Origin: Yuukianura sp. NJ FZ-2021
Lineage: Eukaryota
DNA length: 64,000 nt
NCBI GenBank assembly: GCA_046563655.1
Contig: CM102290.1
Location: forward strand, 9,672,001-9,736,000
Direction of reading: 5' to 3'
Every line of letters begins with the position of its first letter. Within the stretch, counting starts at the first letter, position 1. The notes below the pieces were generated by a model. The model was not told where the DNA came from. It was given only the letters and a program-made list of their open reading frames with translations, and ran no database searches. A program made the position numbers and the translations under genes. This document shows positions 1,441 to 64,000 of this stretch, in pieces.

Positions 1441-1492
1441 GTTTGTTTTCGTTGTAACAAGGAAGATCACATGTCCTGGGAATGTCCGGAAG
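101..1492 (+). repeat. Tandem duplication of a two-exon/two-intron module, period 689 bp
   Basis: 101-728 recurs near-identically from 790, including intron 209-275 = 898-964. The second copy has an extra DDDW-containing segment. The window start carries the tail of an earlier copy. Confidence 0.9.
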
Positions 1493-1869
1493 GTAACTTG
1501 TTTCGTTTTAAAAGATAAAATGACAGTTAAGGTAACCCAATAAGTTGTATATTTATTTACTTGCATTTACCCCAATAAGTGCATAGTTCGTTGTACTACA
1601 CTAAAATAGCTAAGGTTTTTAGTTTCTAAAAATGAATTCCCATTAAGTTAAATGGCACTAGATCCAGAAGATTTGGAAATGAATTATTTAAGGATAAGAA
1701 TGTGTTGGACTTGAGTAGTTTTGTTGTCCTCCATCCAAGGGGGCTGTGTTTGCTCTACGGTGGAATTATAAATAGGCTTGTTCCAGGGCTTCTGCCCGGT
1801 CGATCGAGCAATCGAACGGTCGAGGAGGGAAAAACTTTTTAAAAATTACTTATAGGAGTTGGGGAACGA

Positions 1870-37619: not shown

Positions 37620-40600
37620 TCACTCCTTCTTGGTGGGAACGTCCTTTCGTCTCCAGTTGTCATCCCCTCCAACACTACCAACGTTACCACGATCTCGATC
37701 AGCAGGTCTGTTTCCGTAACCACGGTCACGGTCCTTCCCTTCAAAGGCACGCCGCTCTCGTCCATCGTCATATGGGCGTCTGTCTCCTCCGCGATCTCTT
37801 CCGTCTTCAAAGCCACGGCCTGACGGACGGTCTCGCCCATCTTCAAATCCGCCACGAGACGGACGGTCTCGTCCATCTTCAAATCCGCCACGAGACGGAC
37901 GGTCTCGTCCATCTTCAAATCCGCCACGAGACGGACGGTCTCGTCCATCTTCAAATCCGCCACGAGGAGACGGACGGTCTCGTCCATCTTCAAATCCGCC
38001 ACGAGGAGACGGACGGTTTCGTCCATCTTCAAAGGCGCCACCACGCGTCGACGGACGGTCTCGTCCATCTTCAAATCCGCCGCCACGAGCGCGATCTTGA
38101 CCATCTTCGAAACCACCACGACCTGACGGACGCTCACGTCCTTCGTCAAAACCGCCGCGACCTGCTGGACGATCTCTTGCGTCTTCAAATGGACGACCAG
38201 ATGGACGTTCTTCGCGTCGTACACTGAAATTGTTGAAATAATTATAGTCAACGCATGATTATTTGTAAATTAACTTTTCCAGCCTTACCCAAAACCACCA
38301 GTGCTGGCACGACCACCTCGACTACCATTTCAAAAAAAAAAAAATAATAATAACAAATTAATCACACTATTGTTAATTCTCTGAATCATTTCCAAGCATA
38401 AGTAAAAAGCTTACGACGGTGGCACATAGACGTCACTTCGTGGTGGTCCACTGCTACGCCATGAATCTTCCTTTGGTTCCTATTAAAAATCATAGCCAAG
38501 TTTTAAAATCCAATATTACAGAATTTCAATAACAAAGTTCTAAAACTAATTCAAAGTGATAATTTTTGAATCTTACCTCTTTCCTGTAACTTCCTCGTTC
38601 CATGTCTCTTTCTCCATCACGATCTCCTCTCGCACGGTCACGGTCCATTCTACGGTCGCCTTCCATGTTACGGTCACGGTCCGCTCCTCCATCAAATCCT
38701 CGAGCTCGATCACGTCCACGGTCATCCACAACGTCTCTCTGACCAGGTCCACGGTCATCCACGTCTCTCTGACCTCGCGGTGTCGTTGGAGCCGACTGTG
38801 ATCCTGCTGCACCAGCTTCACGACGAAAGGATGGTCGCCACGCTCCAGAACTTGGTTCAGCGGCTGGAGCTGGTTTGGCGGTTTCTTGTGCTGCTTGATT
38901 GGCTCGCTCCCGCTCACGTTCCTTCTCTTCTCGCTCCTCAATTTCTCGCTGTTTGGCCATTTGAAGTTCCATCGTTCGACGATTCCTTTCTTCCATTTCC
39001 TTTTGTGACTTTTCACGCTCTTCACGCAGACGCTCTTCTTCTTCACGCTGTAATTCTTCTTGTCGTCGACGCTCTTCTTCTGCTCGTTCTTCATAGTATC
39101 TGCGTCGTCGCATATCAAATCTTTCCTTCTTTCGTTCATTCAAACGTCGTGCTTTTTCTTCAACCAAACGCTTCTCAAAATCTTTCAATTTCTTGGTAAA
39201 AACGCCACGTCTTGATTCCAGCAATCCTAAATTAAAAAATAAGTCCATTATTTCAAGTTCGTAATTATTATTTCCTAAAAATCTTTAAGTAATTCACAAT
39301 TCAACCCAAAATTACCTTGCAAGAAAACTTCTTTGTCTTCTAGCATTCTCTTCATACGATCGCGATTCTCTACAGAAACTTTTCGCTCTTCAATCAAGTT
39401 AGCAATCCGCTCCTCTTCATGCGAATTCCATTCGGCCTCTTCCATTTCCTTCTTCTTTGCTGTCTGTTCAGCAATTACTGGAATCTCTTCCAGACGTTTA
39501 GCTCTCTCTAGATGATCCAATCGCTTAAACTGAGCTTGCATTCGAACTTGACGCTCAGATGCCTCCTTTTGAAGTTCCTCTTGTTGACGAAGCATCACCG
39601 TCTCAATGTCCAACTTACTCAAATCATCTTCTTCCAATCGACTAACCACGAGACGACCTAACTTCGTTTGAGCCATTTGTCCAATCTTGTCACGAATTCT
39701 CTTTTGTTGAATTTCCAAAACTTCCATTTCTTTCTTCTTACGCTCACGATCTTCACGCTCGGTTTCGAGACGACGCTGTTCCAAAATCATTTGTTGTTTC
39801 ATCACTTGCTCACTGCGCCACTTCTCTTCATTTTCTCGATCAACGGCTGTCCGTTCTAGTTCTTCCCGACGGTCAGCAATAATCTTTTGACGTTGGAGAA
39901 TGGCAATGTGACTCTGCTTCTCTGTAAGGAGGTGATTTGCATAGATTTTTTGACGCAGTTTCTCCTCAGTGACCTTGAATAAGCACATGTTCGTTGGTTT
40001 TGCTCAAAATAATGGAACTCATCTTAGAAAAACTAACTAAGTTCTTACCGAAACACGATTTGGATTGATAATATTAATTGCTTCTTCGAGACAGCTGTAG
40101 ACGTTGACAAGTTGAAGGCGAACAGACTCCGAAGGCATTTCTTGCAATTGAATTTCTTCCAAGTCTTCGTCGTATGGCGTTTCAGTAAGTCCGGATCCAA
40201 ATCGAACACAGTTGTCACGATGGTCGATTGTAATCTGCATGTCACTGTACCGAACCATGTCCACAATCAGTTGTTCCAAGCGAAGTTGATCAGCAAACAC
40301 CGTAAGTCCAAGGAAGTGTCCATAGTCGATGCTTTGATACACCTAGTAAAAATGTTCAATTGATTATCGTCACATTGTAATTGTATGCGCATCATACACA
40401 GCATTCTACAAACTCTATTATAATAGGCTTACCTGCGAGACTTGACGGATGAGACGAACCAATGCCACGTCTTGAATGAATTCGACGTATTGCTCAAGAT
40501 GTTCGTTTTCCGGATTAGAAATGATTGTTCCAATACTTCGATTAACTCGGTCGCAGAGTTCTAGTGGATTGAATTCCGTTTCCAGAATGTCATGAAGTGT

Positions 40601-42425
40601 TTGAAACTCTTCATTAGCACTGGACAATACGCCGTAGCGAACCAGGTCACGTAACATGGAAGATCTCGTCGGAGGACTTGGTAGAAACAGTAGAGTGGCC
40701 AACTTTTGAGACTTCTCCATCATCCCCTTCTCAGTTTCCACAAATCTCTCAAATTCCGGATGAACCACAGGAAAAGGAATGGCCAGCGTTGCAATAATCA
40801 GTTGCGATGCATTTCTACAATAAGCAAACAGTTTTTAGCATTTTTTTAAACGAAGAGTTCAGGTGTAACTGGCTTACTTTTGAAGCTCGACTGAAGAGAC
40901 ATTCTTCTTCATGTCCTTGCAGAGATTAAAATAGCGAAGGAGCGTGGCAGCATGAAAAAGAAGATTTCCAGCCTTCCAGAAAACAAGAGACAGTTTTTGG
41001 TAGTAGTAAGCCATCATGCGTGTCTGCGACCGTCGAGACTGGTTCATCAGAAGATGGATGTCTTCGATGGCCTTGTAGGCTTCTTGCCACAGTTCCATGG
41101 AAATGGCCGAGTCTAATTGAGACAGACGAGTTTCCATGTTCAGTTGCTGTGTTTCCAATGAAGAAAAGTCAATGCTATTGGGCTGGACGATAGCACGATT
41201 GACGATGTCATCGAAGTGTTTCCGCAGTCGTTCACACAATTTCCGAAACTCGGTCTTCCGGTTGTAGCTCAAACAAAATTTAAAAGCCTGAAATTATGAA
41301 GCACGTCTTTAGATATATTTTGGTGTTGCTCCACTTGTAAAAACAAAAAACAAGAAAATGGTACCATTTGGGCAATGTCGTGGTACAAAGCTTCTAACTT
41401 CGCATTGTTTCGTAGCAAGTCAAGACACTGCGTGTAGGACTCCCACAGAAACTTGACCCACGGAATAATTGCTGCACGATCATTTCGCTCTTGTGCCTGT
41501 TCTTCAGTGATGACACTGAAAAAATACGAAAAGAAATACAGAATTTCAGTTATATCTACCCTATTTTTCTTCTAATACTGTCAATTACTTTAGTAACGTC
41601 ATATCAGCCATTCCCAGATTGTCCAAATCATCAACCTCGGCAATATCTGCACAAGTCTCCAACAAAACCTTGTCTTTCAAAGCTTCCCGGGCTGCCTCTG
41701 TTCTCTCTTCTGCCATTTTAACAAAGCTTCGAATGACTTTTTCGAGGAGTCCAATATTGACCTGGAATTGAAACATAATAGCTCACATTACAGATCAACG
41801 ATCCACCGGTTTCCAACAAGCATAGACATGGAAATGTGTGTATTGTGAAATCTGTGTCTTTGATCACCCTGAAGCAATGGATCATAAAAATCTTTACAAA
41901 TTACCGATTGACACATAAGCCGGTATTGATAAAGTCCCTCCTTTGCCGTATGAGGCTTCTTGAGCTCAACGCACAGCTCCAAGTATTTGAGCATGATGGG
42001 CTCGAAGACTTTTTCACTAAAAGTACGGTGCTTCTTCCCTTTGATGACATCGTAGAGCGTATCCAGGGCCCTCGTCGGTTTTCCAACCTCAATGAACTCT
42101 GAACGTGAAAATATTTCAAAATTATTAACGCCGAAGTCATCCTCCGTGTCACAAAATTTAACAAGTTCATATTCATTACTTCAAGATTCAGTTACACATG
42201 TTTTGCCTAGGTTATTTCATGTAATTATTCATTACCCTCAAAACTATTAACCTCAAAAGCAAAACGTTCCTACCGGCCGGCTTGGGGCTTGACAGTGAAC
42301 GTCAAACACAAGCATGATGAAAACCAAAACCAAAGAATAGCATTAACAACCAAGTAACCAAATTATCTCCACTTACCGTTTGCCTTTTTGAGAGCATTCT
42401 CAGGCCGTTGATAGTATCTGGACAT
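37620..42425 (-). CDS. EIF3A: Eukaryotic translation initiation factor 3 subunit A
   Basis: Multi-exon. [70 protein letters not shown] domain, coiled coil and an R/D/G-rich repeat tail; stop TGA at 37620-37622. Confidence 0.95.
37815..38125 (-). repeat. 36/39-nt coding tandem repeat ([12 protein letters not shown]) in the eIF3a C-terminal tail
   Basis: CCGCCACGAGACGGACGGTCTCGTCCATCTTCAAAT repeated, with several copies identical. Confidence 0.85.
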
Positions 42426-46275: not shown

Positions 46276-47897
46276 TTAGTTTTGTTTCGAAGGTACTTTC
46301 GATGCCGGTTGTGACTGAATTGCACTTCTGAGAATGAATAGTGGAATGATAAAAGCAAGTGATCCGAGGCCATAAGCCACTTCTGGACCGTAGCGCCAAA
46401 ACATGGCTGCTGACACGATCGGACCAAAACTTCGTGCCAAAGCTCCAAGTGACCGGAATATGCCCATTGCAACTCCGTTTTCGTTTGCAGAAGGTACTTG
46501 GGCAGCAGCTAAGGATGTTAGACAAGGGCCAACGATTCCAGATCCTAAGAAGTTAGATGAAATTCATGTCAAATTGATTGCCAACCTAAGTTATGTAAGG
46601 TTAGTGTAACGCTTACCGAAAGAGTAGAGAAATAGTCCAGCGTAGAGCATAAAGGCCTCGGAACAGAATCCAATGAGTATAAATGCAGGGATCATAATGA
46701 AAATACCAAAAGTGGCACTTGGACCTTCCAGTCCAGCTTTGAGTCTTCGTGTGAGCACCCCTTGGATAAAGGTCATGCTAATTCCCATGAAAGCAAACAT
46801 TTTCCCTTGATCTCGTGGGGTGTATCCAAGTTTTTGATGAGCGAGGAATGTCAGAGTAAATTCGAGTCCACTGTAGAAGAAAATGTAAATGAAGAACGTA
46901 AGGCCGAGTGGCATGAGTTTCCGCCCCGTGGACACGGCTTTGAAACGAAATAAGTATGGCGGCCATAAGTAATTGGCAACTTCTTTGCCACGGCTTGATC
47001 CTCGTTTTTCCTAAACGCAAATCATTTTACTGAGTACTTTAGATCATTGTGATTCAAAAAGTTTGTTCTACTTACAACAGGTAACGTCTCTGGTACAAAC
47101 GCTAGCACCAGTAGGAATGAAATGATTGATGAAGCACAAGAGATAATCGCTGGTGTAGTAAAATCTCCTACTTTGGCATAGTAAGCACCAAGGGCTGGTC
47201 CAACGGTGAATCCAATTGAAAAGGCACCACCAATAAGTGCCATTCCGCGAGCTCTGGAACTTGGTTCAGCGTCGTCTGCTACAATTGTTGTGCAGATTGA
47301 TACGTTTGCTCTTGCTAGACCGGCTAGAAGACGAGCAATGACGAACGACCGAAAATCTTTGGCGAAAAACCACACAAAATGGCTCCCAGTGATGGCAATC
47401 TGTAAAGCAAAAAAAAATGTAATCAGTAATTCGCCTGTTGATTTTTTACGACATGCTTGTGAAACTAACAAGGCAAACGAGAAGAGATATCCGACGACCT
47501 TTGACATCTGACACGGCTCCAACGATCGGAGAAGACAGAAACTGGAGAAACGAAAAGGCTGATCCAAGGATCCCACCAATGAGTACTGTCTCTGATTGAG
47601 TTGCTGGAGCCCCAATCAATGCGCCAAGACGTCGCGATCCGTCAGCGACCCAGGCATATAGTCCACTTGGATCGTTGGCTTTGTAACTTTCAAGAATGGA
47701 CGGAAACAGAGGCAGGATAATTGTAAATCCAATTAAGTCGACCAGTAGTGATCCAATTGTGGCCAGCATCACAGTTCGTCGTTCACGTCCGGATCCGGTA
47801 CTTCCCTGTAAATTAGACATTATACTGATTACAACTCGTAATTGAATTTATATAGAATTGAGTTTTCTATGCATACCTTAGGTTGAACACCAGCCAT
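46276..47897 (-). CDS. MFSD10: Major facilitator superfamily transporter, MFSD10/TETRAN-like
   Basis: Exons give VDLIGFTIILPLFPSIL, GSAFSFLQFLSSPIVGAVSDVKGRR (MFS motif A), AFSIGFTVGPALG, YSGLEFTLTFL, GIFRSLGALARSFGP. Confidence 0.9.
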
Positions 47898-49036
47898 TTT
47901 CAGTTGTATCTAATCCGAACCGATTTCTGACTACTTACGACTGATTACCGGATTGTCGTAAACTCATACAAGTTATCAGAGGTACTGATTAATTGCCATG
48001 GGATTTGTGGAAGGAATTGTCTCACCGTGCCCAGATGCCAATAAAATCAAACCTGGTCAAACGCTATCTCGAGTCTGTTACTTTACATATCAATAAATAC
48101 CGTTATTCAAATCCGTCCCAATTGTCGGTTTGTTGTAACAGACGTCAGCACCTGAAGTTGTGATCATGATTTGGTTGTAGCAGTATCAAAAATAAAATCA
48201 ACTCAAAAAACTACATCATATAATTTCGCTTTTTATACTCAACCACATTGTATCTAAATAATCATATTTTTGTAAAAACATTAATGTTTAATTTAAATTT
48301 TTATATTTTGTCAAATTCATTAGTAAAACATTGCACGGCTAGGTTAGTAAAGTTAAATAATTTTCTTGATAGTACCTTTATTAGCAAAAGGTAATATGTA
48401 GTAGTCAATACTAACGGTATTAAAAAGTATCTCAGTATTTAGCTAAAAGAACAAAAATTGGTCTTACTGTATGTATACTGTACAATGTATGTTAATTATC
48501 AATGTGCAATTTAATTCTTTTGCGTTGTATTATAAAAAAAAAAGAACGGAAGAGAAGCGCCGCAAATGCCGACGTCCGCTAGGTTTTTATAAGCAAGCCT
48601 TTACTGCATAAAAGTTATTGGCATTGAATAAAAAAGTTGAAAAAACAGGAATTCATTCATAAACATTTTTTCTGTGACAATTCATCAATTATTCGTGAAT
48701 TAAGATGAGCTTGACAGTTGGAAATATTGTAGTTCCAGCAATCGAATTCAAAGAACGGTCATGAATAATTGAACGTCTTGCTAAACTTCCTTCCCTTCCA
48801 TGTCCGAAAAGTGTTGAAAATGTTAAAAATGACCTCCCGAACAAAGTCATTTAGCAGTGGCAGGAGTTGACACTTCTGCCTCGTGTCGTACTTATAAGTG
48901 ATCAAAGGAATAGGACAGGTACACTGCAACTCTAAAGTATTCAGATAATTACCAACATGTATTTCTGTAAAACGCATTGGTATTCATTGTTCTTTTTCTT
49001 TTAAAATAGGCTAAGTGATTGGTGGTTACTGGCAAT

Positions 49037-52000
49037 ATGGCTGAAACGCATAATCGTGTGATGGAGTCAAGCGGATGGAGTACGACAGACGTCTGGCCAG
49101 TACCAGTTGAATGTCTACTGAACGGAATGACAACGGGCGATTCGCATCTGATGTTCGGGGGAGGACATATGATCCAACATCCGTTTAGACAGCGATTTCA
49201 AACTCCTTTGCAACAACTAAATGGCCCACCACAACATCTCGTATCTATCAATCCCAACTCCATTCCTACACACTCAATAATCGAAAATAATGTCACGGTA
49301 GACGGTAATGGCCAAGTTGAAGTTAATGGTGAAGGTGGACAGGATACCCTCTCACAGAATATGCCTATGAATGACAATGGTATGTTTGAATCCTGTTGAG
49401 TCAATCTACAATGATCCTTACAAAGCTATAATTTTTTATGCTTTTCAGTTTTGGACGAGTCTGATGACAGTTCCGACGAGGACTTGTCCCAGTCTGGTCC
49501 TCAGATGTCTCTTACTCATGGACTCAGTGACAATAGTTTGGTTCAAGTTCAATGCGGAGGTGATCAAGTTCCTGTCGTTCAAGACAATATGGTTCACAAT
49601 CAGTTGCCGATGAGCGGAGATACGCACAATACTTGCCATCACCAAAAGCTGCGGAATGATGTAACCGTGATGAATCATCATGCCATCCATGATCCACCGA
49701 TCAACCCTCTATTCTTCCAGCAAGCAGATCACTTTGAGCCTCCGCCAGTCGTCGTTGAAGAACCAGTAGATGAGGGAGGGAACGATCCAAATACCGGGTT
49801 TTCCGTTTATGGAAAACTTTACTATGAAAGAGAGGGCCGCGTCGTTCTTCATCTAAAACAATGGCTGGATTCCGAATCGGACCAAAACGGAACTGGCATG
49901 AACTTTGACCCGTCTGACCCCTTGAATGGAAAAAATCTCATACAGGGTTGTGCACTCTGTCGGCTCTCTTCGCCTAACCAGGACGCTTACAGAAATCAAA
50001 AACAAGGACATAGGCATACTTTTCGTGGAGTCCTGTTCACCTTTGAAGAATGTACAATTGTAGAACTCTACCCGGAACAGAATCATCCAATTACTTCCCA
50101 CAATGGTAAAGAAAAGTAATTATAAGTAAAATACCTTATGACTTATTAACTGAAATGGCATGACAGTTCATGTCAATTTTAGAACAGCTGATAGCAGTAG
50201 CAGTGTCGAAATTAGCACATTTGTCCGTCTAACTTCAACGTCGCAGAAATTTTTTAGCTTGAGCTCGATGTGTCAAGTGCTTCTTTAATGGTTTCCAGCA
50301 TATTCAATCAAAGCGGTTCTAAGTTCTGGAAGGTTTTGAAAATATGTTGTTCTGATTTTAGGCTTGAAACCCCCGAACGATCCTCAGAGAAAGATTCTAC
50401 AGCAGCAACAACAAAATGGCCACAGACTTATGCCTGCCTACTTACCACCGCCCGTTGATGATCAAATCCAGCAACAGCAGCAACAACAACATTTAGAACT
50501 AAACCAACTCCAAGCTAATTCTCACCCACCGCCACAGCAACACAAAGCTCCGCCTCCAGCAGACCATCAAGCTTGGTGGGACGAATTTGAATCAGAAGAG
50601 GAACTAAAAGACGACGACTCTTCCGAGTTTAGTGACGACGAAGTGGATCCATCAAGTCCAATCAGGGAACACGACCACCAACAAGAGATAGTGACTGGAG
50701 TTATCGGCGGACCTGGACAACCGACACAATGTTTTCCAGAAGAGTCCAACTACCAAACAACAGCTGATTCTCCTTATCTTCGCCAAGAAGCCGAATGTGA
50801 TTCGGCCGAAGCTTGCGAATCATCACAAAATTCGCCACCCGCTCTCGAATCTCTCATGTTAATTGACCATCAACAATCAATTGGTGGAGAAGATGGACAA
50901 GATGAAAATCTGGCTACTCCCAAAAATCAAGAAACGCATGCAGATGAAATCGGATATAACATGGTGGAATCCGAAGTCGAAGATATCTCTTCTGTTCCTC
51001 AACCGTCACCACCTTCTGTTGTTCCACGACCTCCAAAATTACGCGGGAAATTTGAATGTCCTTGTTGTTCAAAATCATTTCCGCTCAAGAAAACTCTCAA
51101 AAGTCACCTTGATGTACAACACATGACGAATCCTTTGCGATGTGACAATTGTCGTAGGCAGTTTGCTGATGAAAGGGGGGTGTCAAAACATGTTTGTTCT
51201 GGAGTCACAATTACGACAGGAGGTCAACGGTTAAATAATTCCAAAAGCCGAATCACCACGGTAGAATCTACTTTGAATAAGTTTGGAGACTCGGATGGAA
51301 GCTCTACAAAAACGAACAAAGCGAAGGAATCTAGTCAAATGGAAATAAAAGAAACTGAATCTGGGACCAATCACATCAAAAACAAGGACAAGAAAAAACG
51401 ATATGCTACCAAGAAAGTTCGGACTTCTCCGACGAAACAGCTGACGGCAAATCCAAAATTTCCGTGCAACCTTTGTGCCAAAACGTTCAGTGTCCAAAGG
51501 AGACTTGATACTCATCGCCTCTCACACGTCAATGACAAGTCGTCACAGTGTGAAAAATGTGGAAAACGATTTGCCCGAAAAGACAAACTCATGCGACACA
51601 TGTTTGTACACAGTGAAGAAAAAATGTTCGTTTGCAACTTATGCTCAAAACGATTTTCGAGGAGGGACAAATTGGCGGATCATTTGAAATCTCATGGCGG
51701 ACCGGAAGAGACACATCACTGCCCGTTATGCAAAAAGGAGTTTTTGCGTCCGGATATTCTCAAACAGCATGTCAAACTGCATGGAATGGGCAACAAGCAT
51801 CAGTGTCCAGAATGTCTCCGATTTGTGACTGGGAGGGACCGACTCCAACAACACATGGCTCGTCACGAAGAGGCAAAAGCTCAAGGTCAACCGCTGCTCT
51901 GTCCGCTTTGTACCAAAAATTTTATTCAGCGACAAAGTTTGAAAGCTCACATCAAAAAGTTTCATTCGACGGCGCATGCTCGGCTGCTATCTGACCTGGA

Positions 52001-52829
52001 ATTTCCTCCGGATCCTCTGGAAGTAGATGCAGATTTAGATGAAGGTGTACTGGTTTCAAAACCGAGAGTTTCCGAAGTTTCCAAGCCGGCAAAGGAACGG
52101 CGTAATCAAGGTGGCAGTAAATTCGGTTGTGAATTTTGTTCAAAACGTTTCAGCAAAAAAGGACCGCTTTTACGTCACGTCGAGAAGAGTCACCAACCGC
52201 AGAGAGAAACTGTTCAACCAAAACCGGAAAAACCAGCGACACAGAACCGGAAAAAGAAAAAGGCGCGAAAGATAAATGGACTTTTGAAAAAAGACAAGGA
52301 AAAACGGACCAAGGATACCGGTCCGGTTCTGCCACTGAAGTCAAGTCCCGGTTCCGGTTCGAATTCTACCGCCATGCCTGATTTGACGTTCACTTCTGCC
52401 GCATCGGAAATTGTTAGTCCACCGATGTCACCAGCAGTAGCCGAAGATGAGTTGCGGCTTCCACAGGAAATGGGGCTGAGGTCTACTGCACATGAGCATG
52501 TCCTGGGTTCAGTCCACGTCCAAGATGGGACCGGGTTCCACTTAACGCCGAATTCGCAGACTCAGATTCCGATTACTCTGGCTACGGTTGCTGTCAATTC
52601 CAATGCAGTTTCATCGCAGAATGGGATTTTAATGGGAACGTCGTTGCATCATGCTCATGCTCTTCTCCAGCATTCACATCCTCTAGCCCAGACGCTGCCA
52701 CCAATGGCTCATCCACAGGGCCAACTTCATACACACATCAGTCATGTGACTATGCCGCATCACGTGGCCCAGGCACAACAAGCTATGTGTGGAACTCCGT
52801 ACGTTATTTATCCGCACTACTATCAATGA
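49037..52829 (+). CDS. Multi-C2H2 zinc-finger transcription factor with long low-complexity N- and C-terminal regions
   Basis: Exons 49037-~49379, 49449-50105 and 50362-52829 join in phase 1. About nine C2H2-type fingers, including CEKCGKRFARKDKLMRHMFVH and CNLCSKRFSRRDKLADHLKSH. Confidence 0.85.
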
Positions 52830-53984
52830 ACAGAGGCACAAACTCATTTTTTAAAGATCTCAGTCACAATCGGTCAGTAACGCCTTTATATATATATATC
52901 TTAATTAACTAATATACTAATTAATTGTTAAATTAATTATGAACAAAGAAATAACTAGGAAGTACGAAGTAGTTGGAAGTAGATAAAGCTTTAGTAGTTA
53001 AAGAATGCAGCGTTTAGTGAAGTTGAGTGTTTGTCAATCGTCTTTCAAAAAAGTTTCACATCTTTTATTTGACTAGTTTTTCAAAAAACAAAAACTTTTG
53101 TACCTCATTTTCAAATTTTAGAAAAGCGCAAAAGCAGTAGGAGCAGGATACGTTTAATTGCAAATGGGACGAATCAAATGTACAATAATTTGAAGTTACT
53201 ATGCAAATTTAAAGAAAAGAAATAAAAATGTGGAGTTTGTCTCCGTGCACATTGAAAGAAAAGTTGAATTTTGAAATTTTCTGGAGTGAAAGTTACATTT
53301 TCGGTGTAAAAACGAAAAAAATGGGACCGAGTGGGGGCGGGGTAAGTTCTGGCTTCTAGGTAAACAATGAAGGTCTTCGAAGAATGGAATTTAATGGGAC
53401 ATTGTTCCACTTTGGCAAATGGCACTTGCCATAGTACTCTAAGCTCCGTTTGGAATCTGAACAATTTCCTTGACAGGCTTCCTCACGTGCTCAGCGGAAT
53501 GTCATTGGCTAAAATGGAACAGTGGGGGAGTGTCAAGCATAGTTACGCATTACCCCAGTTGAGGATTTCCTCAAAATCCAAACGCCCTCTTTTCCAAATT
53601 TCTACTTTCCTAATTAAGAAAATTATTAAAAGAATGATTTAAGAAATACTCATTTTTTTTAATGAAGCAAAAAATAAAAATTCAAATTATACTTTTGTTA
53701 AAGTTGGGTGTTACAAATGTAATACCCCCTATGTAGTTAGAAAAATAGACAGTATGACGCTGGTTATACTGCATGATTACAACGAACCCAATTCTGGTTT
53801 ATATTATGGTAGCTACTCAATAGTTATAATTGTTGACGTTCAAGTTAACATTTTGAGGATTTCCTCAGTCAAAAGGGGAGCGTAGGTATGAAAAGCGTTT
53901 CTTCAACAATGGTATTTGAAACAGTTCGGTTGAAGACGAGAGAAGAACGCTGTGGCTGATGGAGCGGTGTCGTCAGGACGCAAT

Positions 53985-54418
53985 ATGGACGCAACGTCAA
54001 TGGTCCTCAGCATTTTGGGACTGGCTTTACATTGGAGCAGCATCGCCATGACCTCTGACCTCCAGCACTACTGCTACACTGAACTCATCACAGCCTTGGC
54101 AATAAGCTGCGATCGTATCTACGCCGCCGACTCTTCTACAACTAGTAAGCTTTCACACAAGGACTAAAGCAACCAATCACAATTCTGCAAAAATTTTCCT
54201 AACCAATCAGAGACTAACAATTTATTTTCATTTTTGAAAGTTGTCAATTTTTGTAATTAAAAAAACTAGGTCGAGGCCGAAGGTCACCGGAAACAGTTGG
54301 AGCTGAAGATATTCGACGTCGGCTTCCGAGAAATGTCGTAGAACAGTGTTGTAGAAGACCGTGTAACGTGGCAACGCTCCAGCGGTACTGCAGTATTATT
54401 CGAGAAAACCGGCGGTAA
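53985..54418 (+). CDS. Insulin-like peptide (ILP-1 of the cluster)
   Basis: Exons 53985-54144 and 54270-54418 (phase-1 intron). Signal peptide, B chain HYCYTELITALAISC (C-x11-C), basic sites RGRR and RRR, A chain NVVEQCCRRPCNVATLQRYC (CC-x3-C-x8-C). Confidence 0.85.
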
Positions 54419-55877
54419 AATCTAAATTTTGAACAAGCGCTATTGTTTTTTCATGGCACTAATTCACCCTGTTCTTAGTCAATAGACTTTCCACAGCAGC
54501 AAATTCAAACGGAACGACACGAACAACTACGCCGGCACCAGTAAGTTCATTCCGTATGCAATTTCATCAACGAACAAAAGTTCAACCGAAATAGTTTGAA
54601 AATCCGCTTGTTATACCAGTGACTTTGAGAGTACTAGTATTTTAAACTTGACCTTCATTTGGTTTAGTTTACAATTCGAAAAAAAAGGAAAAGGAAACAC
54701 TAAACATTTGACTTTTTAGTGTCAAAAACTGTTTATAATTTTAGTTTCAGCATTGACATTGTTCTTTTCCTTTTATTTGTTGGAAATGGCAATTAACAAA
54801 GTGAGTTAGCTTCTAGTTAGTTGATTTTTTATAGCTTTTTGATGACTCGCTTTAACTTTGTTAACTAGGGAATTGGGACTACGAGGCGTGGAAGAGGTCA
54901 AAGGTCAACTACCCCTGTGGCGGATGGGCGCTCCACTCTACAGAGCCTCACGGAGTCACCTTCCCCTGACCCCGTCCCTGTGGGGGACTTTAACTTCTAT
55001 CCCTAAACAATTTCAAGTTGAATTTTTTCCAAAAATTTTTCGATTGAAAAACTTCCAAAGTCTGACATCATCTTTTTTGATTTTTTTAAGATCGTGATTG
55101 TCTAGTCGTATCGAAATTAAGTATTAAAATTTTAGCTTTAAAATTTATTCGATAGCTTACTATTATAAGAAATTAAAAAATGTGATCATTTCTCAAACTC
55201 TGGTCAAGACAAACTGGCATTGCGTCAGGTTGTTTGTAATGGTACAGTGTAACCACTGCGATTGTAGCTAATGAATTCCGTTACAATACTTGCAACCACC
55301 GAGTTGTTACTGTAAATGAGTTTAAGTTATAAATATATGCAGATTGAAAAACAAAAAACAGCTAACTTCTAACTCTAGTTTATATGTTACTTACAGTGGG
55401 TTAGTTACATTCGGAGTACGCCGTTGGTTCAAGACGTTTGTTTCGAATGCGAATAGTTTCGAAAAATGTTTGTTTCGAATCACAAATTGTTGCCTGGTTA
55501 CTAGTAATACTTTTAGTAACTATTTCATTGTAGCCACCCACTGTAACCACTGATAAATGGTAGCAGTGGTTACCTTTTGTGGTTACATCTGACGCAAGTT
55601 TGCTCCAGTAAAACTGTTACATTACGTTTTAGTTCAAATGAAAATCAAGGAAATTATAGACAGGACGTCCATGGTTCATTGAAACCCATAATTTCTTCAA
55701 GATTCAAATTTGTTCTATGAAACACGCGTTTTCTTACGTATTTTTTTCAGAACATGATTACAGACCAAGCCATTCTTTCAAAATTAAAAAAATGAAAATT
55801 CGAAAATTTCCATGAATGGAAAACGTTTTTGGATCTTGGGATCCAGGGCGGATCCGTAGCTTAGCAACAACTTTTCG

Positions 55878-55885
55878 TATATAAA
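55878..55885 (+). promoter_or_regulatory. Candidate TATA box of ILP-2
   Basis: TATATAAA upstream of a putative non-coding exon (donor ~55951, acceptor 56039) that precedes the ATG at 56045. A 5'UTR intron is typical of insulin-family genes. Confidence 0.5.
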
Positions 55886-56044
55886 CGTATAAAACTGAAG
55901 GCAGCAGTCCTTTGAAATTTTAGAAATAAAGCTTCACCAGTGGAAGAAAGGTAGTTCAAAATATCACACAAATTCAAAAGTAGTGCTCTGAAATTTGAAG
56001 TTTGGTTCTAAAAATGTTGATTTTTTGAATAGTTTTTAGACCCA

Positions 56045-56579
56045 ATGATGAAGATGGTCCATTGGTGGGTACTATTGGGTCTATTTACTTTTGTCGCCAC
56101 TGGATTTCCATTTTCGACTCATGAAGATCACGAAGACAGCGGCAAGGAACAAGATGAAGGGTCACACCTCGTCATGCCGTCTTCTGTCCCGCGCCCGCCA
56201 AAAATTCATATTTGCGGTTACCGAATTCTGGCAGAAATTTCGACAATTTGCGGTCATACACATCGTCCAAACGGTAAGGAAATTTTTGAACCTAAGACAT
56301 TTTTGGAGAAAAACGTCCTAACTTTCCGAATCATAGACTTTCTTTTTTATAATAAAAGTTTTAAATTTTTCTAATAATTTTTTAAAATCTTTTTTGAAAG
56401 TAATAAACTTTGATTGGTTTTTTGATTTTTTCAAATTAGGAAAGCCACAGCGCGACTTACTTCCACGTCGTTCCATTCGTTCCGTCGTAGACGACTGTTG
56501 TCGAACGGGTTGTAATTTAAGTGAGCTGCAACGATACTGCGCAAATCCTGCATTTGGAGTGGTAAGAACGCAGACTTGA
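56045..56579 (+). CDS. Insulin-like peptide (ILP-2)
   Basis: Exons 56045-56273 and 56440-56579. Signal peptide, acidic N-terminal extension, B chain HICGYRILAEISTIC, short C region, A chain SVVDDCCRTGCNLSELQRYC. Confidence 0.9.
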
Positions 56580-59304
56580 CAGTTACACACGCCAACACAC
56601 ACATGCGTACAAGATTTCAGACAAACTCAAGTTTTCAAAATGTTGAAAGACAAGAGTTGGAAAAATTTCAGTTCTTTAATTTTGTTTTAAAATCATATGT
56701 CTTAGAGTTTCATTTTTTGTCACTTTTCCAAGTTTCTTTGTTAAAACTCACCTTGTAATCAAAAATTTACTTGAAAATAAAGTGACAATCTGCAAAATTT
56801 CAATTACGGAGTCCACAAAACCTGAAAGCCAAAAAAACAAGCACATTCTTAAAAAAAATAACTTTTTTAAACCCCTTCATCAAACTGTAAAACGAAAAAA
56901 AAATTCCTAGAATGGAAGAAAAAGAAACTTTTTCTGAAAAGTTTCCACTTTCGCTATTAAAACAATTCAATTTCTTTCGGAATTTGGACTGCGTGTTATA
57001 CAACGCGAAAGTTGTATAGCACGCACTTAACTAAACCATTTTTGTTCTAAGGAGCACGCACCACGTACCCTCTCACTTCAAGAGTTTATTCAAGAATTTG
57101 CTGATATACTGGAGGAGGCGACGGGGGGTGATCCGACATTTGAATCGGCTCCAGTCGAAGGGTCACCGCGTGGGGTGAAGGCCGTTTACTTCCAAGACTT
57201 GGCAGAAGTCGGTGACGAATCAGGACAGCCGAGTCGCCTCGGAGAAAAGACTCTGCGTACACATAAGAAAGGAATGTCATCTGACGAGTTGTCCCATGAA
57301 CTGGACGAGGGGAGCACTGTGTCCATTGGTCACATGGTGTCAGCTGACTACAAGTCATCTGACTCACTCTTTTCGGGCATGGAGAAACTAGCAGCAGCAA
57401 AAGGCGGGATAGCTGTCATCATTCCAGCCAGACGCATTTGACCTGCCTACATACACTTGTGCACACGCAAATTTCTTTGCATACAATCCATTCTGTGCAG
57501 AACTTCTTTCCAAATTTTGCAATTCAGCTTCAGCCCAAACCTCAGAATTTCTGGTTCAAGCGTTAGATTTCGTTAATATTGTTGTGCGAGTACATTACAT
57601 TTCATGGACATACGTCCTCGCATTCGTTTGCGTATCATGCGTACTTAATTTGTGCACATGCGTTAACTTCTGTGGATTTCAATCAGTTAACTTGACTTCG
57701 ACGTATCGTTAAAATTCAAAATCAAGTGTTAGAACAAACTCCTTCTTCGAGATTTCAAAGCAAAACGTTCGTCAAGAAACTTCGTGAAGCGCATGCAGCG
57801 TCTAAAAATGAATATGTCCATGCAAAACTTTCAAACGGAACATAGCAATGTTAAAAACATAGGTGTCATAAAAACGCGTATGTTTTCGAAATGAAATCGA
57901 AATGACTATTTATTGATTTAGGAGAGTAGTTTAGCTTAAAACAGAATAAAAATGATGATGGAATGACATCGCAACTTGTCTTCATGTTCTTTTGAATTTT
58001 CAAAATGTAGACAAAATAAACTACTTTTTTTTAGTTTGAAAGTAGAAAATGAATTTCTCGAGTAACATGACCCCAGGTCATGTTACTCGTCAGGTGAACA
58101 AACATTCGTAAAAAAAAATCATTACCCGTTATCCTTCTTCTTACGATTGGAAAAAAAAATAAATATTTTTAGAACTGAACCTAAAAATTTCGTTTTCGTT
58201 TAGCGCAGGTCAAAGGTCAGAAATCATCAGTTTCTTTGATGATGATGATTGGCTTACAACATCTTTGTAGTGCTTACTCCTTCGATCTATTATAAGATTG
58301 ATGAAATTTGCTGATTGCGAACATTGTTTCTGCCTCCATTCATATCCTGTTCTTAGAACTCGTGAATTGGGCTGAATTTGCGAAAAATTTCACAAACGGA
58401 ACATTTTCGCATGATGCATTTCTAATTCACTCTCTCACCAACTTCGTAATTTACAAATTGACTCTTGACTAACGCTAACTAACATTTGTTAGTTTAAAAA
58501 ACGATACTTTATATCTTTACTAATCCTAAGAATTTATTAAGTTGTCATCCTCCCCTTCACCTTAATAAAAAAAAAGACTTCAACATGCATACATTTTAGG
58601 TTAGCGTAAACGTAAATAACATCCATTGTAACCACCGAGAACAACGCATGGTTACCAAACTTGTCTAAATTACTAAACTTTTTTTTTGAAATTTTGGAAT
58701 TTTTTGAAAGTCTTGTATTCACCTTGAGTGTAACCACCCAACATAATCAGACAAAAATGGCGCCGGTGGTTACACTTTGTGTTTACAGTGAATGCAATTT
58801 TGGTTTACATCAACCTAAAATGTTTATCAGAACCATTTATTAAATGCTCAACGAGTTTAAAACGGTGCGCGTTATACAAAATGTTGGTTTGTATAATGCG
58901 AATCCAGCAAATTGGGTCTGACCTCCAAATTTCTGTAATAATCATAGTTAGTTTTTATATAAGCGGAAGTTACTCAAAGTTTGAAAGTCAGCCAACTTAA
59001 GGTTAATTAGTTAATTGTAATTAAGAAGAGGTTGATGTTCTCTGAGAAAATGAATGGAGTGTTTACTTTATGCCAGTCAGGAAGTTCATTGTCACAGGGG
59101 AGAATTCATGATGTGGCTCCCTTCCGTAGGGAGTTGGGCGGTAGGAAGCTGGAAGAGCGCTGTTAAGGTGTCAGCGACCCACTTAAAATTTTTACACTTC
59201 GTACTTGCGACGCTAACTGGACACTTCACACCTCCAGGCTCTGATAGCAGTTCCAGCCTTCGCTAATTAATTGACAACCTAGTTCAAGTGATTACTTTCT
59301 GGAA

Positions 59305-60612
59305 ATGAGTTTCAAAGGAGCACAGTTTATGGTGACGGTCGCTGTCGTTGTGGTTGCTGTTGGTCAATATACTACGAGCCATCCTGTCCCACCGTCGTCC
59401 CGCCACCATGTCCATACAGAGCCACCAAAAACGTCCGTTTGTGGAGTTCGCATTAGGGAACTCATTCGAGTCACTTGTCCACATTTACACAAACAAGGCT
59501 ACTATGTCCCCGGAAATCACATCTTGCAGAAATGTAAGTTTACATTTCAATACATCCAAGAAAATTTGTTTCAATTTCGGTTTCAAAACTTTGTGAAATT
59601 TTCTTTGAAATTTTTAAAAAGCTAATGCCGTTCTGCCGGTGGTACTTGAAGACAACATGGAGGGACTCAAGCGTCTGCGTAGACAAATCGTGAAAGAATG
59701 CTGCAAACAACCGTGTTTGAAGGCAGATCTGAAAAAATATTGTAACGCCGTCCAAAATTTGAACATCCATCAGCAAATGTAAGAATTTTTTTTTGTCCAC
59801 ATCAAAATAATTTTGAAAAGTTTGAAGATTTTCTGAATCAGGTTTTTACATTTTATAGTGAAAGTGAAAGTTTCGAAGAAAATGAAACCAGTTTCCAAGT
59901 TACTGAAGACCCAATGTTCAGCAGTTCTGTAAGCACAGTGTCAACTTTTTCAAAAAACTATTTTTGATTTTTAAAATTTGAAAATGTTTCACTTTTCAAA
60001 ATTTGGCGGCTGTTCATTTCATGCTTGGGTGTGTCTAATAGTTGCCACTAGGTGTGCGTCATGGTGCAAGCGCTGAATCCAGAACCCGAGTCCATTCTCA
60101 TAGTAAACCCAGAATGAGACTGCGACATCAAAACAAGGTTTGCATGTTTTAAAAAGAAGCTTGGTGTTTCAAAATTTTCAAAATACGTTTTTAAATTTTA
60201 GAATTGTACAGTTAGCATAACAATAACCTAAGCTTAACCTGTCATACAGCTTAGCCTAACGCTAACAATTATGTAGTTGAGGAATCGTATTGCTTCTGAG
60301 CTTCAGTTTTTGCCTGTCGTTCTTCCTTTTGGAATTGGGAAAATTGTTCTCGCTGCTTTCAAAACTAACTGGAATCCATCGTTGGTAACCACAATTTTCA
60401 AAATTAAAAAAATGCGAGAAAGAAAAATTAATAATTTTACAAATTTTTCAGAATTTTCTATCAATGGTTTTGATTTGTTGTTTCAGCAATCACTGATTTC
60501 CGAAGAACTTGAACTGGAGAGACGTCCGAGGCGTGGAATGGAAGTTCGAACGGTTCCGCCACAGCCAGAGCCGGTGATTCTACATGCCAACGAGTACTCC
60601 ATTTACAACTAG
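59305..60612 (+). CDS. Insulin/IGF-like peptide with C-terminal extension (ILP-3; architecture like arthropod IGF)
   Basis: Exons 59305-59533, 59622-59778, 59859-59928, 60487-60612, all in phase. B chain SVCGVRIRELIRVTC; KRLRR; A chain QIVKECCKQPCLKADLKKYC; tail IESESFEENE..QSLISEELELERRPRRG..YSIYN*. Confidence 0.8.
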
Positions 60613-60819
60613 ACGCCTGGAAATGCATTCTGCGCAGATGCAAAAATAAATTTAAATCCATCCAAACGAATCTCTCCATTTCTTAGAAAATCAGAATTCA
60701 AATTTAGAATTAAACAGAAATCGGTTTTATTTTGAATTTAACAAAAATGTGTTAGTTTTTTAACTTTGTTTGAACCTTAAGGTTTAAATTTTGGCGCGAA
60801 TTTTGTTTTCCTTGGAAAT

Positions 60820-61447
60820 TTAAACAGGACACAAGGAAGACAATCCAGCGAGATGCAGAGGTGAGCAATTGGAAGATTCCGAACAACAGGCACGCACAAT
60901 GTCGTCGTGACTGAAATTTGTTTGACGCACTCGTCGATACGCCTTCCAAAACAGTGGCCATCCACTCGCGGGTTTTTCGAAATTTGGAAATTCAAATGTA
61001 TTTGAATTTTTCTGGTCTCCCGCTTTTGCGTTTTCCATCTCCTCTGCAACCGCTGCCATAAAAGTCATTTCCATTACTGCTTCCTCATCTTCATCTGTAA
61101 AACAAAATGGCTGGAATTTCAAATGTCTAAAATTTCATAATTTTGGAGGGAAAAATGTTGTAAAATAATAAGAAACTAAAGTTTTGATTCATAATTTAAA
61201 AAAAAGAAGTTGCTTTTCAAAATATACCGAGCGGTTTCCAGTTGTTTCCGGAGGGTTTCGTTGGCGTCGTGTCGAATCGAAAACTACGAGCAGCTTGAAT
61301 GCTACGCTTGGCGACGGCACAAGCTCGGGCAACGACATACAAAATTTTATCGTTGGCGCAACCTTTGTACTTGTGTGCGTCAGGCCACGAGGTCGCAACA
61401 GCAGTCATTCCAAGTACGAAAAGTAGAATCCACCAGGAGCCATTCAT
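60820..61447 (-). CDS. Divergent insulin-family peptide (ILP-4), gonadulin-like
   Basis: Exons 61447-61228 and 61094-60820 (phase 1). Signal peptide, B chain GCANDKILYVVARAC followed by AVAKR, RRVR site, A chain DIVRACCSESSNCSPLHLAGLSSLC. Confidence 0.75.
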
Positions 61448-61935
61448 TTTGGCGCCAAAACTTTTGTTTAAAAATTTTTGAAATTCAGTTTTAAAATTTA
61501 CGCGGGAAAAGAGTTCCTACATGTCGTACGTCTGAGGACACAATGGCGCCAAAACTTTTTCTATCATAACCTGAGCTCTTTCTAAATTCAAAATCTGCGT
61601 ATCTTATCGTGTTGAAAAAGTAGAGCAACGTGGCCTTTGACCTCTAGTTTAACTCAATTCAATAAAAAGTTAACGACTTTAGTGTGTTCCGTCATGCACA
61701 ACACTTTATAAGTTAATTATAGCACAGTTAATTAACATTAAAGTTAACTAAAGTTGACATCAAGGATTAAAAATAGTTAAGGAAGCGAGAAGGAATGTCA
61801 TGAACAGATTCTTTTCTGGTGTTGATGAAATTGTACCAAAGACATTGGGCAAAACATTGTCAAACACAACATTAGTTTAACATTGGTCAAAGTTAGGTTT
61901 CCAATTCCGCCAATCAGAATCCAGCAATTGGAATT

Positions 61936-63356
61936 TTACTTGTCGCAGAGATTGTACTGCCGATCCACTTCTACGAAGTCAGCAGAAGAACAGCCACTCA
62001 CACAACACTTGACGATGATTTCATTTATGCGAGCCTGACGGCGCCATCTTTTAAATGGATCGGGAAAAAACGGGGGACGACGCATGAAGGGGTAGAAGAA
62101 AAAAGGGGGAGGAGCTAGGAAGGGGAATGGTGGAGGGGGTACAAGGGGGTATGGGGGTACAACCATGTCCAACGTCCAAGGATCTGGGGGTCCCAAGTCA
62201 TAAAAATCATCTCCAGCACTTCCAACAGCGCCATCTACAAACAAAATTGTTTCATGATAATAGGGGGTTTGTGTTTCAAATCATTTATAGAAATTATAGA
62301 ATTTAGTAAGTCCCGTCCCTTTCCACCCCCAGCAACCCGCTTTGTTACGGCTTCCGTTATTGGTTGATTTCAAATGTATGACGTCACTTTCCAAACTTTT
62401 CTCATTTATGGAACTTATGTCCCATGTTTATAATGTGAATCCGAAAAGTTTGAAAAGTGACGTCATAAATTCTCTACTTTCTATAAGTTCTATAATTTAT
62501 TGATAACGCAAACTCCCTAATTAATAGTTTATTTGCGTTTTAGCATCACTTATATGACAAAATATTGGCATAAAAAGCTATGGTTTTAGGTTCGTCAAAA
62601 AAAATTTCAGACAAGATGACCTTGAACTTGCCAGAAATTCAGAGAATTTCTACGATGAAATTCGACGTGAATCAAAACTGGTAATTAAATTCCATAATGA
62701 ATTTCATAAGAGTTTTTTGAGTTTCTAATGATGTCATACTTGCCGCTAACTGAACACTTAACAGCCTTTGAACTAACCGTCACCAAACAAATCTAGCCTT
62801 CTCATAAATTTACGTCGCGAGTTCGCATCCCGCCAACGAAAATTCCGTTAAAATTCCCTAAAAAAGAATAACAAATCTAGTTGACCTCGAAATACTTACA
62901 TTCTCCGCCTTTCGTCAAAAACAAACAACATCTTGTCATTTTTTTAAATCTCCAGCCTTCCGTTCATTTTGAACCACTCTGAACATTCCCTTGTGCATTT
63001 ATTATGAAAGACGTTGTACATTTCTTACCGAGAAAATAGGCGGCATTCCGTTTGTACACGACGCAGACTCGTAGGAGATGCCTCGTAATGGCCGACTTGT
63101 TGCAGTTCTCGTTGAGCCAGTAGGGAACTTTTGAAAAAGCGTTCGGGTAAGGGCCGACAGACCCCGTCACTAAAACAGCACATATAAGGATTAATACGGT
63201 CAAAACCCAGAGGTCAGAGGTCAATGACGTTTGGGTTGACCTTCCTCCTGCAACCACAAGAGACAATTACTTTTAGTTACATTAACAAAAGTAAATGTTA
63301 GCCTGTATATATTCATACGTGTACTTACGTCCTACAGTTCGAATCCGATCTGACAT
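61936..63356 (-). CDS. Divergent insulin-family peptide (ILP-5), gonadulin-like, with a Pro/Phe-rich C-peptide
   Basis: Exons 63356-63329 (alternative in-frame ATG at 63374), 63247-63029, 62234-61936. Hydrophobic signal, B chain NCNKSAITRHLLRVC followed by VVYKR, KRWRR site, A chain INEIIVKCCVSGCSSADFVEVDRQYNLC. Confidence 0.75.
62263..62517. mobile_element. TA-flanked MITE-like element in an ILP-5 intron
   Basis: Flanked by TA on both sides. Imperfect TIRs GGGGGTTTGTG..TTATAGAAATTATAGAA / TTCTATAAGTTCTATAA..CGCAAACTCCC, plus an inner 24-bp inverted repeat at 62378-62401 / 62443-62466. Confidence 0.6.
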
Positions 63357-64000
63357 CTGATTGGTTCCCAACATTCAGACTCTCCTCTTCTGATTGGTCC
63401 AATGTAGCTAGGTACCACTGGTCCCTTCAAACATTTCCAGGCCTCCTTGCGACACTTCGACTTCTTACGCAAGTTTCCAGTTCACTCCAGTACACAAACT
63501 AAATTAAAAATTCCAGAGGCGTACGAATGCGACACTTGAAACGAGAAAGTCGTAAAATCTGGAGCGGCTGCTTTTGTTATGGTAAACAATGGGAAGCCAA
63601 GGAAAAACAACAACTTAAAAAAATTCTCACACGTTTCCCCTTTCAAAAACGAAAATCTTGAAAATCTCAAAGCTTTTTTGCAGATTACCAACAAGAAAGT
63701 TTAATATTTAAATAACTTTAATTAAATAACTCTGGAATATCTCGCTCCTCCTCTCCACACATCTCCTAAGCACAATTTCTTAATAAAAATTGCAATTAAA
63801 TTCATTTCAATTTTTTGAAATTTTGAATTTTAGAAACTGAAACGCTTTGATTTTTTTTTTTGGGCAAAGCCTATTTCGGAAGAATTTGGCTGTGCCACGG
63901 TGTAGCTCCATTGAATCATTTTCCTCACTGTCCCTTCTCTCCCTCCTCCACAGCAGCACCACTCTCTTCAATGACCTTTGACCCCTCACTTGGAACTGGT

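Follow-up and report, generated by a model that had tools for sequence, protein, structure and literature searches.

Does a stretch of about 9.4 kb in the genome of Yuukianura sp. NJ FZ-2021 hold a cluster of insulin-related genes and, if so, of what kind are they? The question is raised by positions 53985-63374 of a 64,000-nucleotide piece of contig CM102290.1 (assembly GCA_046563655.1), the whole of which is called the window here. An earlier reading of the same DNA, referred to below as the original prediction, had placed five highly divergent insulin-superfamily genes in this interval. Our results make it very probable, as far as sequence can tell, that five protein-coding genes of the insulin/IGF/relaxin superfamily, which we call g1 to g5, stand here in a compact tandem cluster. 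Judged by their predicted products, g1, g2 and g3 are of the ordinary insulin/IGF type, and g4 and g5 are very divergent.

Five predicted genes with insulin-type architecture

The gene models, which are predictions from the sequence, were read from positions 53500-64000 of the window by joining open frames across introns, all of them GT..AG. Three genes (g1, g2 and g3) lie on the + strand and two (g4 and g5) on the - strand. Rebuilt in this way, the five models agreed with the original prediction in their coordinates and strands, in the phase-1 intron of the C domain, in the six Cys and in the basic sites. In all five window genes, and in both genes from a second organism described below, the phase-1 intron lies between an exon carrying two Cys (the B exon) and an exon carrying CC..C..C (the A exon). 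The original prediction had called such an intron a conserved feature of insulin genes, and Veenstra (2021; PMC8286064) indeed describes insulin-type genes as characterised by a phase-1 intron within their C domain. Every product of the cluster has exactly six Cys outside an N-terminal hydrophobic stretch, and KR, RR or RxxR sites flank the connecting peptide on both sides. By hydropathy only, a hydrophobic 10-residue window with a mean Kyte-Doolittle value of 2.2-3.7 occurs within the first 45 residues of all five. The remark in the original prediction that the track of open reading frames (ORFs) had missed the A chains of g1 and g3 is plausible, their stop-to-stop ORFs being just 53 and 54 aa long.

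In g1, g2 and g3 the Cys pattern is C-x11-C in the B chain and CC-x3-C-x8-C in the A chain, which is the exact spacing of the superfamily. In a six-frame translation of the 64-kb window, CC-x3-C-x8-C occurred three times, always within the cluster; 100 Markov shuffles gave a mean of 0.06 and at most 1. A loosened form of the A-chain motif was found six times, against 0.75 expected from the same shuffles. The sixth of these loose matches, at 30130-30177 on the - strand (CC-x3-C-x9-C, with a stop directly after it and RxxR before it), has neither an upstream B-chain exon nor a signal peptide and, since chance alone should yield about 0.75 motifs of this sort, was taken to be fortuitous.

The Pfam Insulin model (PF00049) was run on 11 separate exon translations, not on spliced products. 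The A-chain exons alone scored 30.3 bits for g1, 27.3 for g2 and 24.6 for g3, the gathering score being 23; scanned singly, three of the five A exons passed and none of the five B exons did. A sequence search of the PDB covered the A regions of g1, g2, g4 and g5. The exons for the A domains of g2 and g1 matched best to solved structures of vertebrate IGF-II and Drosophila DILP2/DILP5: for g2 to IGF-II (6.5e-5), with an alignment made up of the basic site, CC..C..C and the first D-domain residues, and for g1 to the A chain of DILP2 (3.6e-5), with IGF-II also matched. In both cases only the A domain of about 25-30 residues aligns, and the B exons have no Pfam match of their own. These A-exon matches (Pfam for g1-g3, PDB for g1 and g2) bear out the idea of an insulin-superfamily cluster. 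The Pfam check that the original prediction had proposed, run here on single exons, thus placed three A exons above the cut-off and gave no match for g4 and g5. Its description of all five genes as highly divergent fits g4 and g5 only. In a codon-usage test of low power, g2 and g3 lay above most null ORFs; exon 3 of g2 had the highest score of all exons and g5 the lowest.

Several other searches gave negative results. Profile scans with an alignment of the g3 A exon found no relative in genome-contig or viral-contig collections, the three A-chain strings did not occur in a full-text literature search, and peptide strings from the window were not found in two supplementary files of PMC8286064. 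A search limited to proteins of near lengths returned no homologue for g5 exon 3, the g2 A-exon ORF or g5 exon 2, and a protein atlas held nothing usable for the A exons of g4 and g5.

A second organism and the 3′ exons of g1, g2 and g3

The gene g4 has two exons on the - strand. Exon 1 (61228..61447) encodes a predicted signal peptide, WPDA.KY, C-x12-C and, three residues on, KR, and ends in phase 1; exon 2 (60820..61094) encodes a long C-peptide, an RR site and CC-x5-C-x11-C, with a stop two residues past the last Cys. Searched in full with HMMER against 1.84 billion representative proteins, g4 exon 2 gave two matches at E <= 0.001, P0001 and P0002. P0001 is a repeat protein, and we judged it a false positive because its matching segments resemble what we take to be a Rho-GTPase stretch. 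P0002 (74 aa) had an E value of 2.7e-4 with HMMER and of 5e-12 with BLASTP (35% identity), and the alignment ran from the C-peptide through the RR site to CC.

P0002 is encoded by a metagenome contig of 2584 bp (L001). Here the g4 orthologue has two exons (631-829 and 908-1152), between which a phase-1 intron of 78 bp occupies the same position as in g4. As in g4, WPDA.KY stands at the start of the mature part and is followed by C-x12-C, with KR three residues on; the A chain has the pattern CC-x4-C-x8-C. The two genes are 35% identical over exon 2 and differ in the lengths of their A-chain loops. On the opposite strand of L001, and tail-to-tail with the g4 orthologue just as g3 is with g4 in the window, lies the 3′ part of a g3 orthologue, three and a half exons long, whose intron phases are 1, 2 and 0, with a middle exon of 61 nt and a splice donor placed over the stop codon in the same way as in g3. 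The A exon of this g3 orthologue scored 26.4 bits with Pfam Insulin.

When all ORFs of at least 20 aa from L001 were compared with the window by tblastn, both exons of g4 were recovered (7.3e-12 for exon 1, 4e-10 for exon 2), as were the A exon (1.7e-10) and the last exon (2.3e-9) of g3. Blastn of L001 against the window aligned a single 50-bp block. Because tblastn keeps the exons while blastn aligns no more than these 50 bp, the coding exons are conserved and the non-coding DNA is not. Exons, splice positions and gene order that are kept amid such divergence are what selection on real genes produces, and the comparison supports the view that the predicted g4 is a real, conserved gene. The original prediction had also suggested a lineage-specific expansion. 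For the g3/g4 part this did not hold up: because the pair is also present in L001, it is not an expansion confined to a single species. A near-perfect palindrome of about 100 bp (1-100) opens the L001 contig; a hairpin element or a fold-back made in assembly could account for it.

Exon 1 of g3 (59305..59533, + strand) encodes a predicted signal peptide and the B chain and ends in phase 1, at a position conserved in L001. Exon 2 (59622..59782) carries KR/RR sites and the A chain, after which a phase-2 donor (GTAAGA, at 59779) shares bases with the stop codon. From this donor the frame would pass into exon 3 (59859..59928), an acidic exon of 70 nt whose 61-nt counterpart in L001 has the same phases and the same place, and then into a conserved C-terminal exon 4 (60487..60612) with the sequence RTVPPQPEPV and with AATAAA at 60645, for a product of 193 residues. 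The donor over the stop, the phases of the middle exon, and the last exon with its acceptor are all kept in L001. By this comparison the predicted g3 gene is one that extends into two further 3′ exons, which is the layout of arthropod IGF (aIGF) genes. Published aIGF genes have two extra exons, a neglected donor leads to a much smaller predicted peptide, and the last exon has the motif GTVxPx(F/Y) (Veenstra, 2020; PMC7357564). As with those genes, g3 would carry a C-terminal extension on two extra exons, and a short insulin-like peptide (ILP) results if the donor is ignored. The likeness of the last exon is a partial one: RTVPPQP, in g3 and in L001, keeps TV.P of the aIGF motif and lacks its G and its final F/Y. 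Neither g1 nor g2 contains GTVxPx(F/Y).

A similar arrangement may exist in g1, of which exon 1 (53985..54144, + strand) has the start codon, a hydrophobic N-terminus and the B chain with C-x11-C and ends in phase 1, and exon 2 (54270..54418) has the basic sites and the CC-x3-C-x8-C A chain, the short form stopping at 54416-54418. Over this stop lies a donor, GTAAAA at 54415, in phase 2 as in g3. Two putative exons, found in a long form only, would follow at 54486..54540, placed by its AG/GT sites with phases 2 and then 0, and at 54869..55006, an Arg-rich exon with a Pro-rich ..PV..F.FY tail. With them g1 would have the phase pattern 1, 2, 0 and a product of 165 residues whose tail resembles that of g3. 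Counting against these exons, a hidden Markov model (HMM) of the last exons of g3 and its L001 orthologue did not recover g1 exon 4 among 2643 window ORFs. Because of this failure we treat the long form of g1 as tentative, with somewhat less than an even chance of being correct.

In g2, exon 1 (56045..56273, + strand) encodes a predicted signal peptide, an acidic N-terminal extension and the B domain (C-x11-C) and ends in phase 1; exon 2 (56440..56561) encodes a short C domain and the A domain and ends at a phase-0 donor. This donor leads into one further exon only, exon 3 (57052..57441), which encodes a charged, E-like C-terminal domain of 129 aa. Because just 26 residues separate the Cys of the B and A domains, g2 resembles a single-chain IGF. 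It is IGF-like: its short C domain would probably be left in place, so that the product stays one chain, and its third exon encodes a long C-terminal domain. No Cys follows the sixth in g1, g2 or g3, and these genes accordingly have no Arg-rich segment with two extra Cys of the aIGF type. The exons of the original prediction therefore stand, and the extents that it gave to the genes do not, since g2 has a third exon, g3 has two more and g1 may have two more.

The divergent pair g4 and g5

The model of g5, on the - strand, begins with exon 1 (63329..63374; model only), which has a start codon plus 15 codons and is followed by a phase-1 intron. Exon 2 (63029..63247) encodes the hydrophobic stretch and C-x12-C, with KR three residues on, and ends in phase 1. 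Exon 3 (61936..62234) encodes a Pro/Phe-rich C-peptide, KR/RR sites and CC-x3-C-x14-C, with a stop two residues past the last Cys. The hydrophobic stretch begins at residue 33, after an unusually long N-terminal region. As in g4, two hydrophobic residues occupy positions equivalent to A2/A3, before CC. Neither gene has a phase-2 intron. The stop of g5 (61936-61941) is also overlapped by a phase-2 GTAAAA donor, as in g1 and g3; no plausible downstream exon follows it in the approximately 490 bp before g4.

An HMM of the g4 family, made from g4 and its L001 orthologue with the signal peptides removed, scored 12.8 bits on g5, a score reached by none of 2000 shuffles. The score came from two collinear matches, one being the B chain and the other the RR site with the A chain. 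The scores of the same model on g1, g2 and g3 were reached by 224, 1231 and 639 of 2000 shuffles, respectively. With separate HMMs of the B exon and the A exon of this family, the matching exon of g5 was in each case the best non-self hit among 2643 window ORFs (E 0.055 and 0.069). At this level of similarity, g5 is a detectable paralogue of the predicted g4. We assign g4 and g5 to the superfamily by their architecture: six Cys in the usual order, the phase-1 intron, the hydrophobic pair before CC, the position of the stop, and the place of both genes in the cluster. A prediction of the two-chain complex of the B and A parts of g5 had a score of 0.02, which is no answer, and was counted neither way.

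A number of results weigh against this assignment. The Cys spacing of g4 and g5 departs from the superfamily consensus, the order of the six Cys being the same. An HMM of g1-g3 links only weakly to these genes, its scores being reached by 45 of 2000 shuffles for g4, by none of 2000 for g5 (4.2 bits) and by 523 of 2000 for the L001 orthologue. In the scan of 2643 ORFs, the B exons of g4 and g5 and the A exon of g4 were outside the top eight of the canonical HMMs. The separate exons of both genes gave no match to Pfam Insulin, their A regions had no PDB sequence match at E values up to 10, and no orthologue of g5 was found in homologue searches. Codon usage, in the low-power test mentioned above, left g1, g4 and g5 among the null ORFs (null fractions 0.29, 0.22 and 0.37).

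Could it be, then, that only g1-g3 are insulin-family genes, and that g4 and g5 encode secreted peptides of an unrelated six-Cys family that are adjacent by happenstance? The missing Pfam and PDB matches, the C-x12-C spacing, A-chain loops of x3-5 and x8-14, and the unranked B exons would all fit such an origin. However, in g4, g5 and the L001 orthologue it is a phase-1 intron that separates the two-Cys part from the CC..C..C part, the hydrophobic pair stands at the A2/A3-equivalent positions, and the stop comes two residues past the last Cys. Moreover, both genes sit inside an ILP cluster in which the adjacency of g3 and g4 is conserved, and no shuffle reached the score of the canonical HMM on g5. 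Published gonadulins are themselves six-Cys peptides beyond recognition by similarity (PMC7357564). We therefore consider an unrelated family improbable. We likewise give little credence to the idea that one or more members (likeliest g5 or g1) are duplicates in decay, unexpressed or non-functional. The long N-terminal region of g5 before its hydrophobic stretch, its low-complexity Pro/Phe C-peptide, its codon-usage score (the lowest) and its lack of a detectable orthologue all point that way, but every frame is intact, the splice sites are canonical, all six Cys are present, and g5 retains both KR and RR. In addition, the searches that failed for g5 need shared words of five residues, which orthologues at 35-40% identity often do not have.

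A further alternative bears on g1 and g3, which might make just the short, two-exon insulin-like products and leave the downstream exons unused. Both A exons do end in an in-frame stop, and g1 exon 4 has no significant similarity to the last exon of g3. For g3, however, the last exon and its acceptor, the phases of the middle exon and the donor over the stop are conserved in L001 amid DNA that cannot be aligned, and the layout is that published for arthropod IGF genes (PMC7357564). Taken over both genes this alternative is quite unlikely; for g1 it may hold.

If the cluster is what we propose, five genes of the insulin superfamily, the products of g1-g5 would pass into the secretory pathway, with formation of the three disulfides of insulin. 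Those of g1, g3, g4 and g5 would be cut at KR/RR/RxxR sites to give B-A heterodimers. In g3, and perhaps in g1, the B exon and the A exon would be joined to two further exons through the donor that overlaps the stop and, since it does overlap the stop, one gene could give either a short insulin-like or a long IGF-like product. The products of g1-g3 would presumably signal through an insulin-receptor tyrosine kinase; those of g4 and g5 might, by analogy, exert their action via an LGR-type G-protein-coupled receptor. The latter two would represent a fast-evolving six-Cys branch with a spacing of 13 residues between the B-chain Cys, KR right after the B chain, a connecting peptide of 90-100 residues, A-chain loops that vary in length, and a stop two residues past the last Cys.

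Published clusters, repeats and neighbouring genes

The original prediction had pointed to reported clusters of IGF-like, gonadulin and dilp7-type genes, and such clusters are indeed published for arthropods and ambulacrarians (PMC7357564; PMC8286064). The locus is a further case of this arrangement of IGF genes with divergent ILPs. As in the aIGF-gonadulin-relaxin locus of arthropods, IGF-like genes adjoin a very divergent six-Cys ILP and have been duplicated locally, which is published for spiders and a stick insect (PMC7357564). Unlike that locus, the window lacks the alternatively spliced, Arg-rich segment that brings two extra Cys, and it has two divergent genes where the published locus has one. 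The likeness is one of layout and description, and orthology is not claimed. Gonadulins are described as having six Cys of the insulin type, as too divergent to be recognised by similarity, as highly variable, and as lying beside aIGF genes (PMC7357564). By this loose description, g4 and g5 fit as gonadulin-like peptides.

Genes of the dilp7/relaxin type have an A chain that is conserved, an F domain and a further phase-2 intron; octinsulin has eight Cys (PMC8286064). No dilp7/relaxin-type gene was found in the 64-kb window, whose three canonical A motifs all belong to g1-g3. In contrast to dilp7/relaxin, g4 and g5 have no phase-2 intron, and the A chain of g4 differs even from that of its own orthologue. 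The ambulacrarian cluster of IGF, octinsulin and dilp7 genes is similar to the present one in having at least two IGF genes within a few kb of other insulin-related genes, all with phase-1 introns in the C domain; unlike octinsulin, g4 and g5, as every other product of the window, have six Cys and not eight (PMC8286064).

The cluster also contains DR1-type repeats, RGGTCA-R-AGGTCA. Five are exact within 10 kb, at 54049-54061 (-), 54895-54907 (+), 58207-58219 (+), 63211-63223 (+) and 63972-63984 (-), and a sixth, at 61631-61643 (-), has one mismatch; their flanks are unrelated. Two or three lie in coding exons (g1 exon 1, g5 exon 2 and the putative g1 exon 4), and one precedes the g4 start codon by about 185 bp. 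In L001 the only DR1 has two mismatches and lies about 165 bp upstream of the g4 orthologue; it is not significant, as 42 of 200 shuffles reach one match. Over the whole window there were 22 matches with at most one mismatch, against 0.22 expected, and the spacing is specific, with 17 exact DR1 repeats and none for DR0, DR2, DR4 or DR5. Ten of the 17 exact matches fall in a tandem array at 35300-36130, with units of about 120 bp and runs of the heptamer GGTCAAA/GGTCAAG, which lies within the open frame 35692-36090. By their sequence, the DR1 repeats could be nuclear-receptor sites of the HNF4/RXR type or the seed of a 7-bp repeat. That g4, g5 and the L001 orthologue form a previously unrecognised branch of the superfamily, which could be the gonadulin/dilp8-type ligand of an LGR in a lineage for which none is described, and that the DR1 elements could mean control of the entire locus by HNF4/RXR-type receptors, is a speculative reading that we hold to be unlikely.

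Two hairpin inverted repeats are possibly miniature transposons. One, in intron 2 of g5 (62373-62471), has 34-nt arms that are 88% complementary, each with TGACGTCA; the other, upstream of g3 (58591-58823), has 45-nt arms that are 143 nt apart. Paired copies of CCAATCAG, which resembles a CCAAT box, were noted by eye at 63356-63410 (around the g5 start codon) and at 54171-54215 (g1 intron 1). A search with Rfam found no RNA gene. The neighbouring genes of the cluster are at 257-1543 (+), 2129-3835 (-), 9440-14514 (-), 38526-42180 (-), 46591-47847 (-) and 49019-52829 (+). Among the neighbours are a protein with a CCHC zinc knuckle and acidic DDDWD repeats, in two tandem copies, two mucin-like ORFs that are rich in Ser/Thr/Pro and end in VWC domains, eIF3a (with a PCI domain), an MFS transporter and a poly-Q C2H2 zinc-finger protein. 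Their presence marks the remainder of the window as plainly eukaryotic.

What does the cluster mean for the insulin superfamily? By itself it opens no new question. It is one more case, beyond the published species, in which IGF-like genes adjoin very divergent six-Cys relatives of insulin, and as such it supports the idea that the arrangement of IGF genes with divergent ILPs is ancient. It is also a concrete example of how annotation based on short ORFs overlooks A-chain exons and C-terminal IGF exons. Finally, the pair g4 and g5, together with one orthologue from another species, provides a handle for searching other compact genomes of invertebrates for gonadulin-like peptides, which evolve fast.

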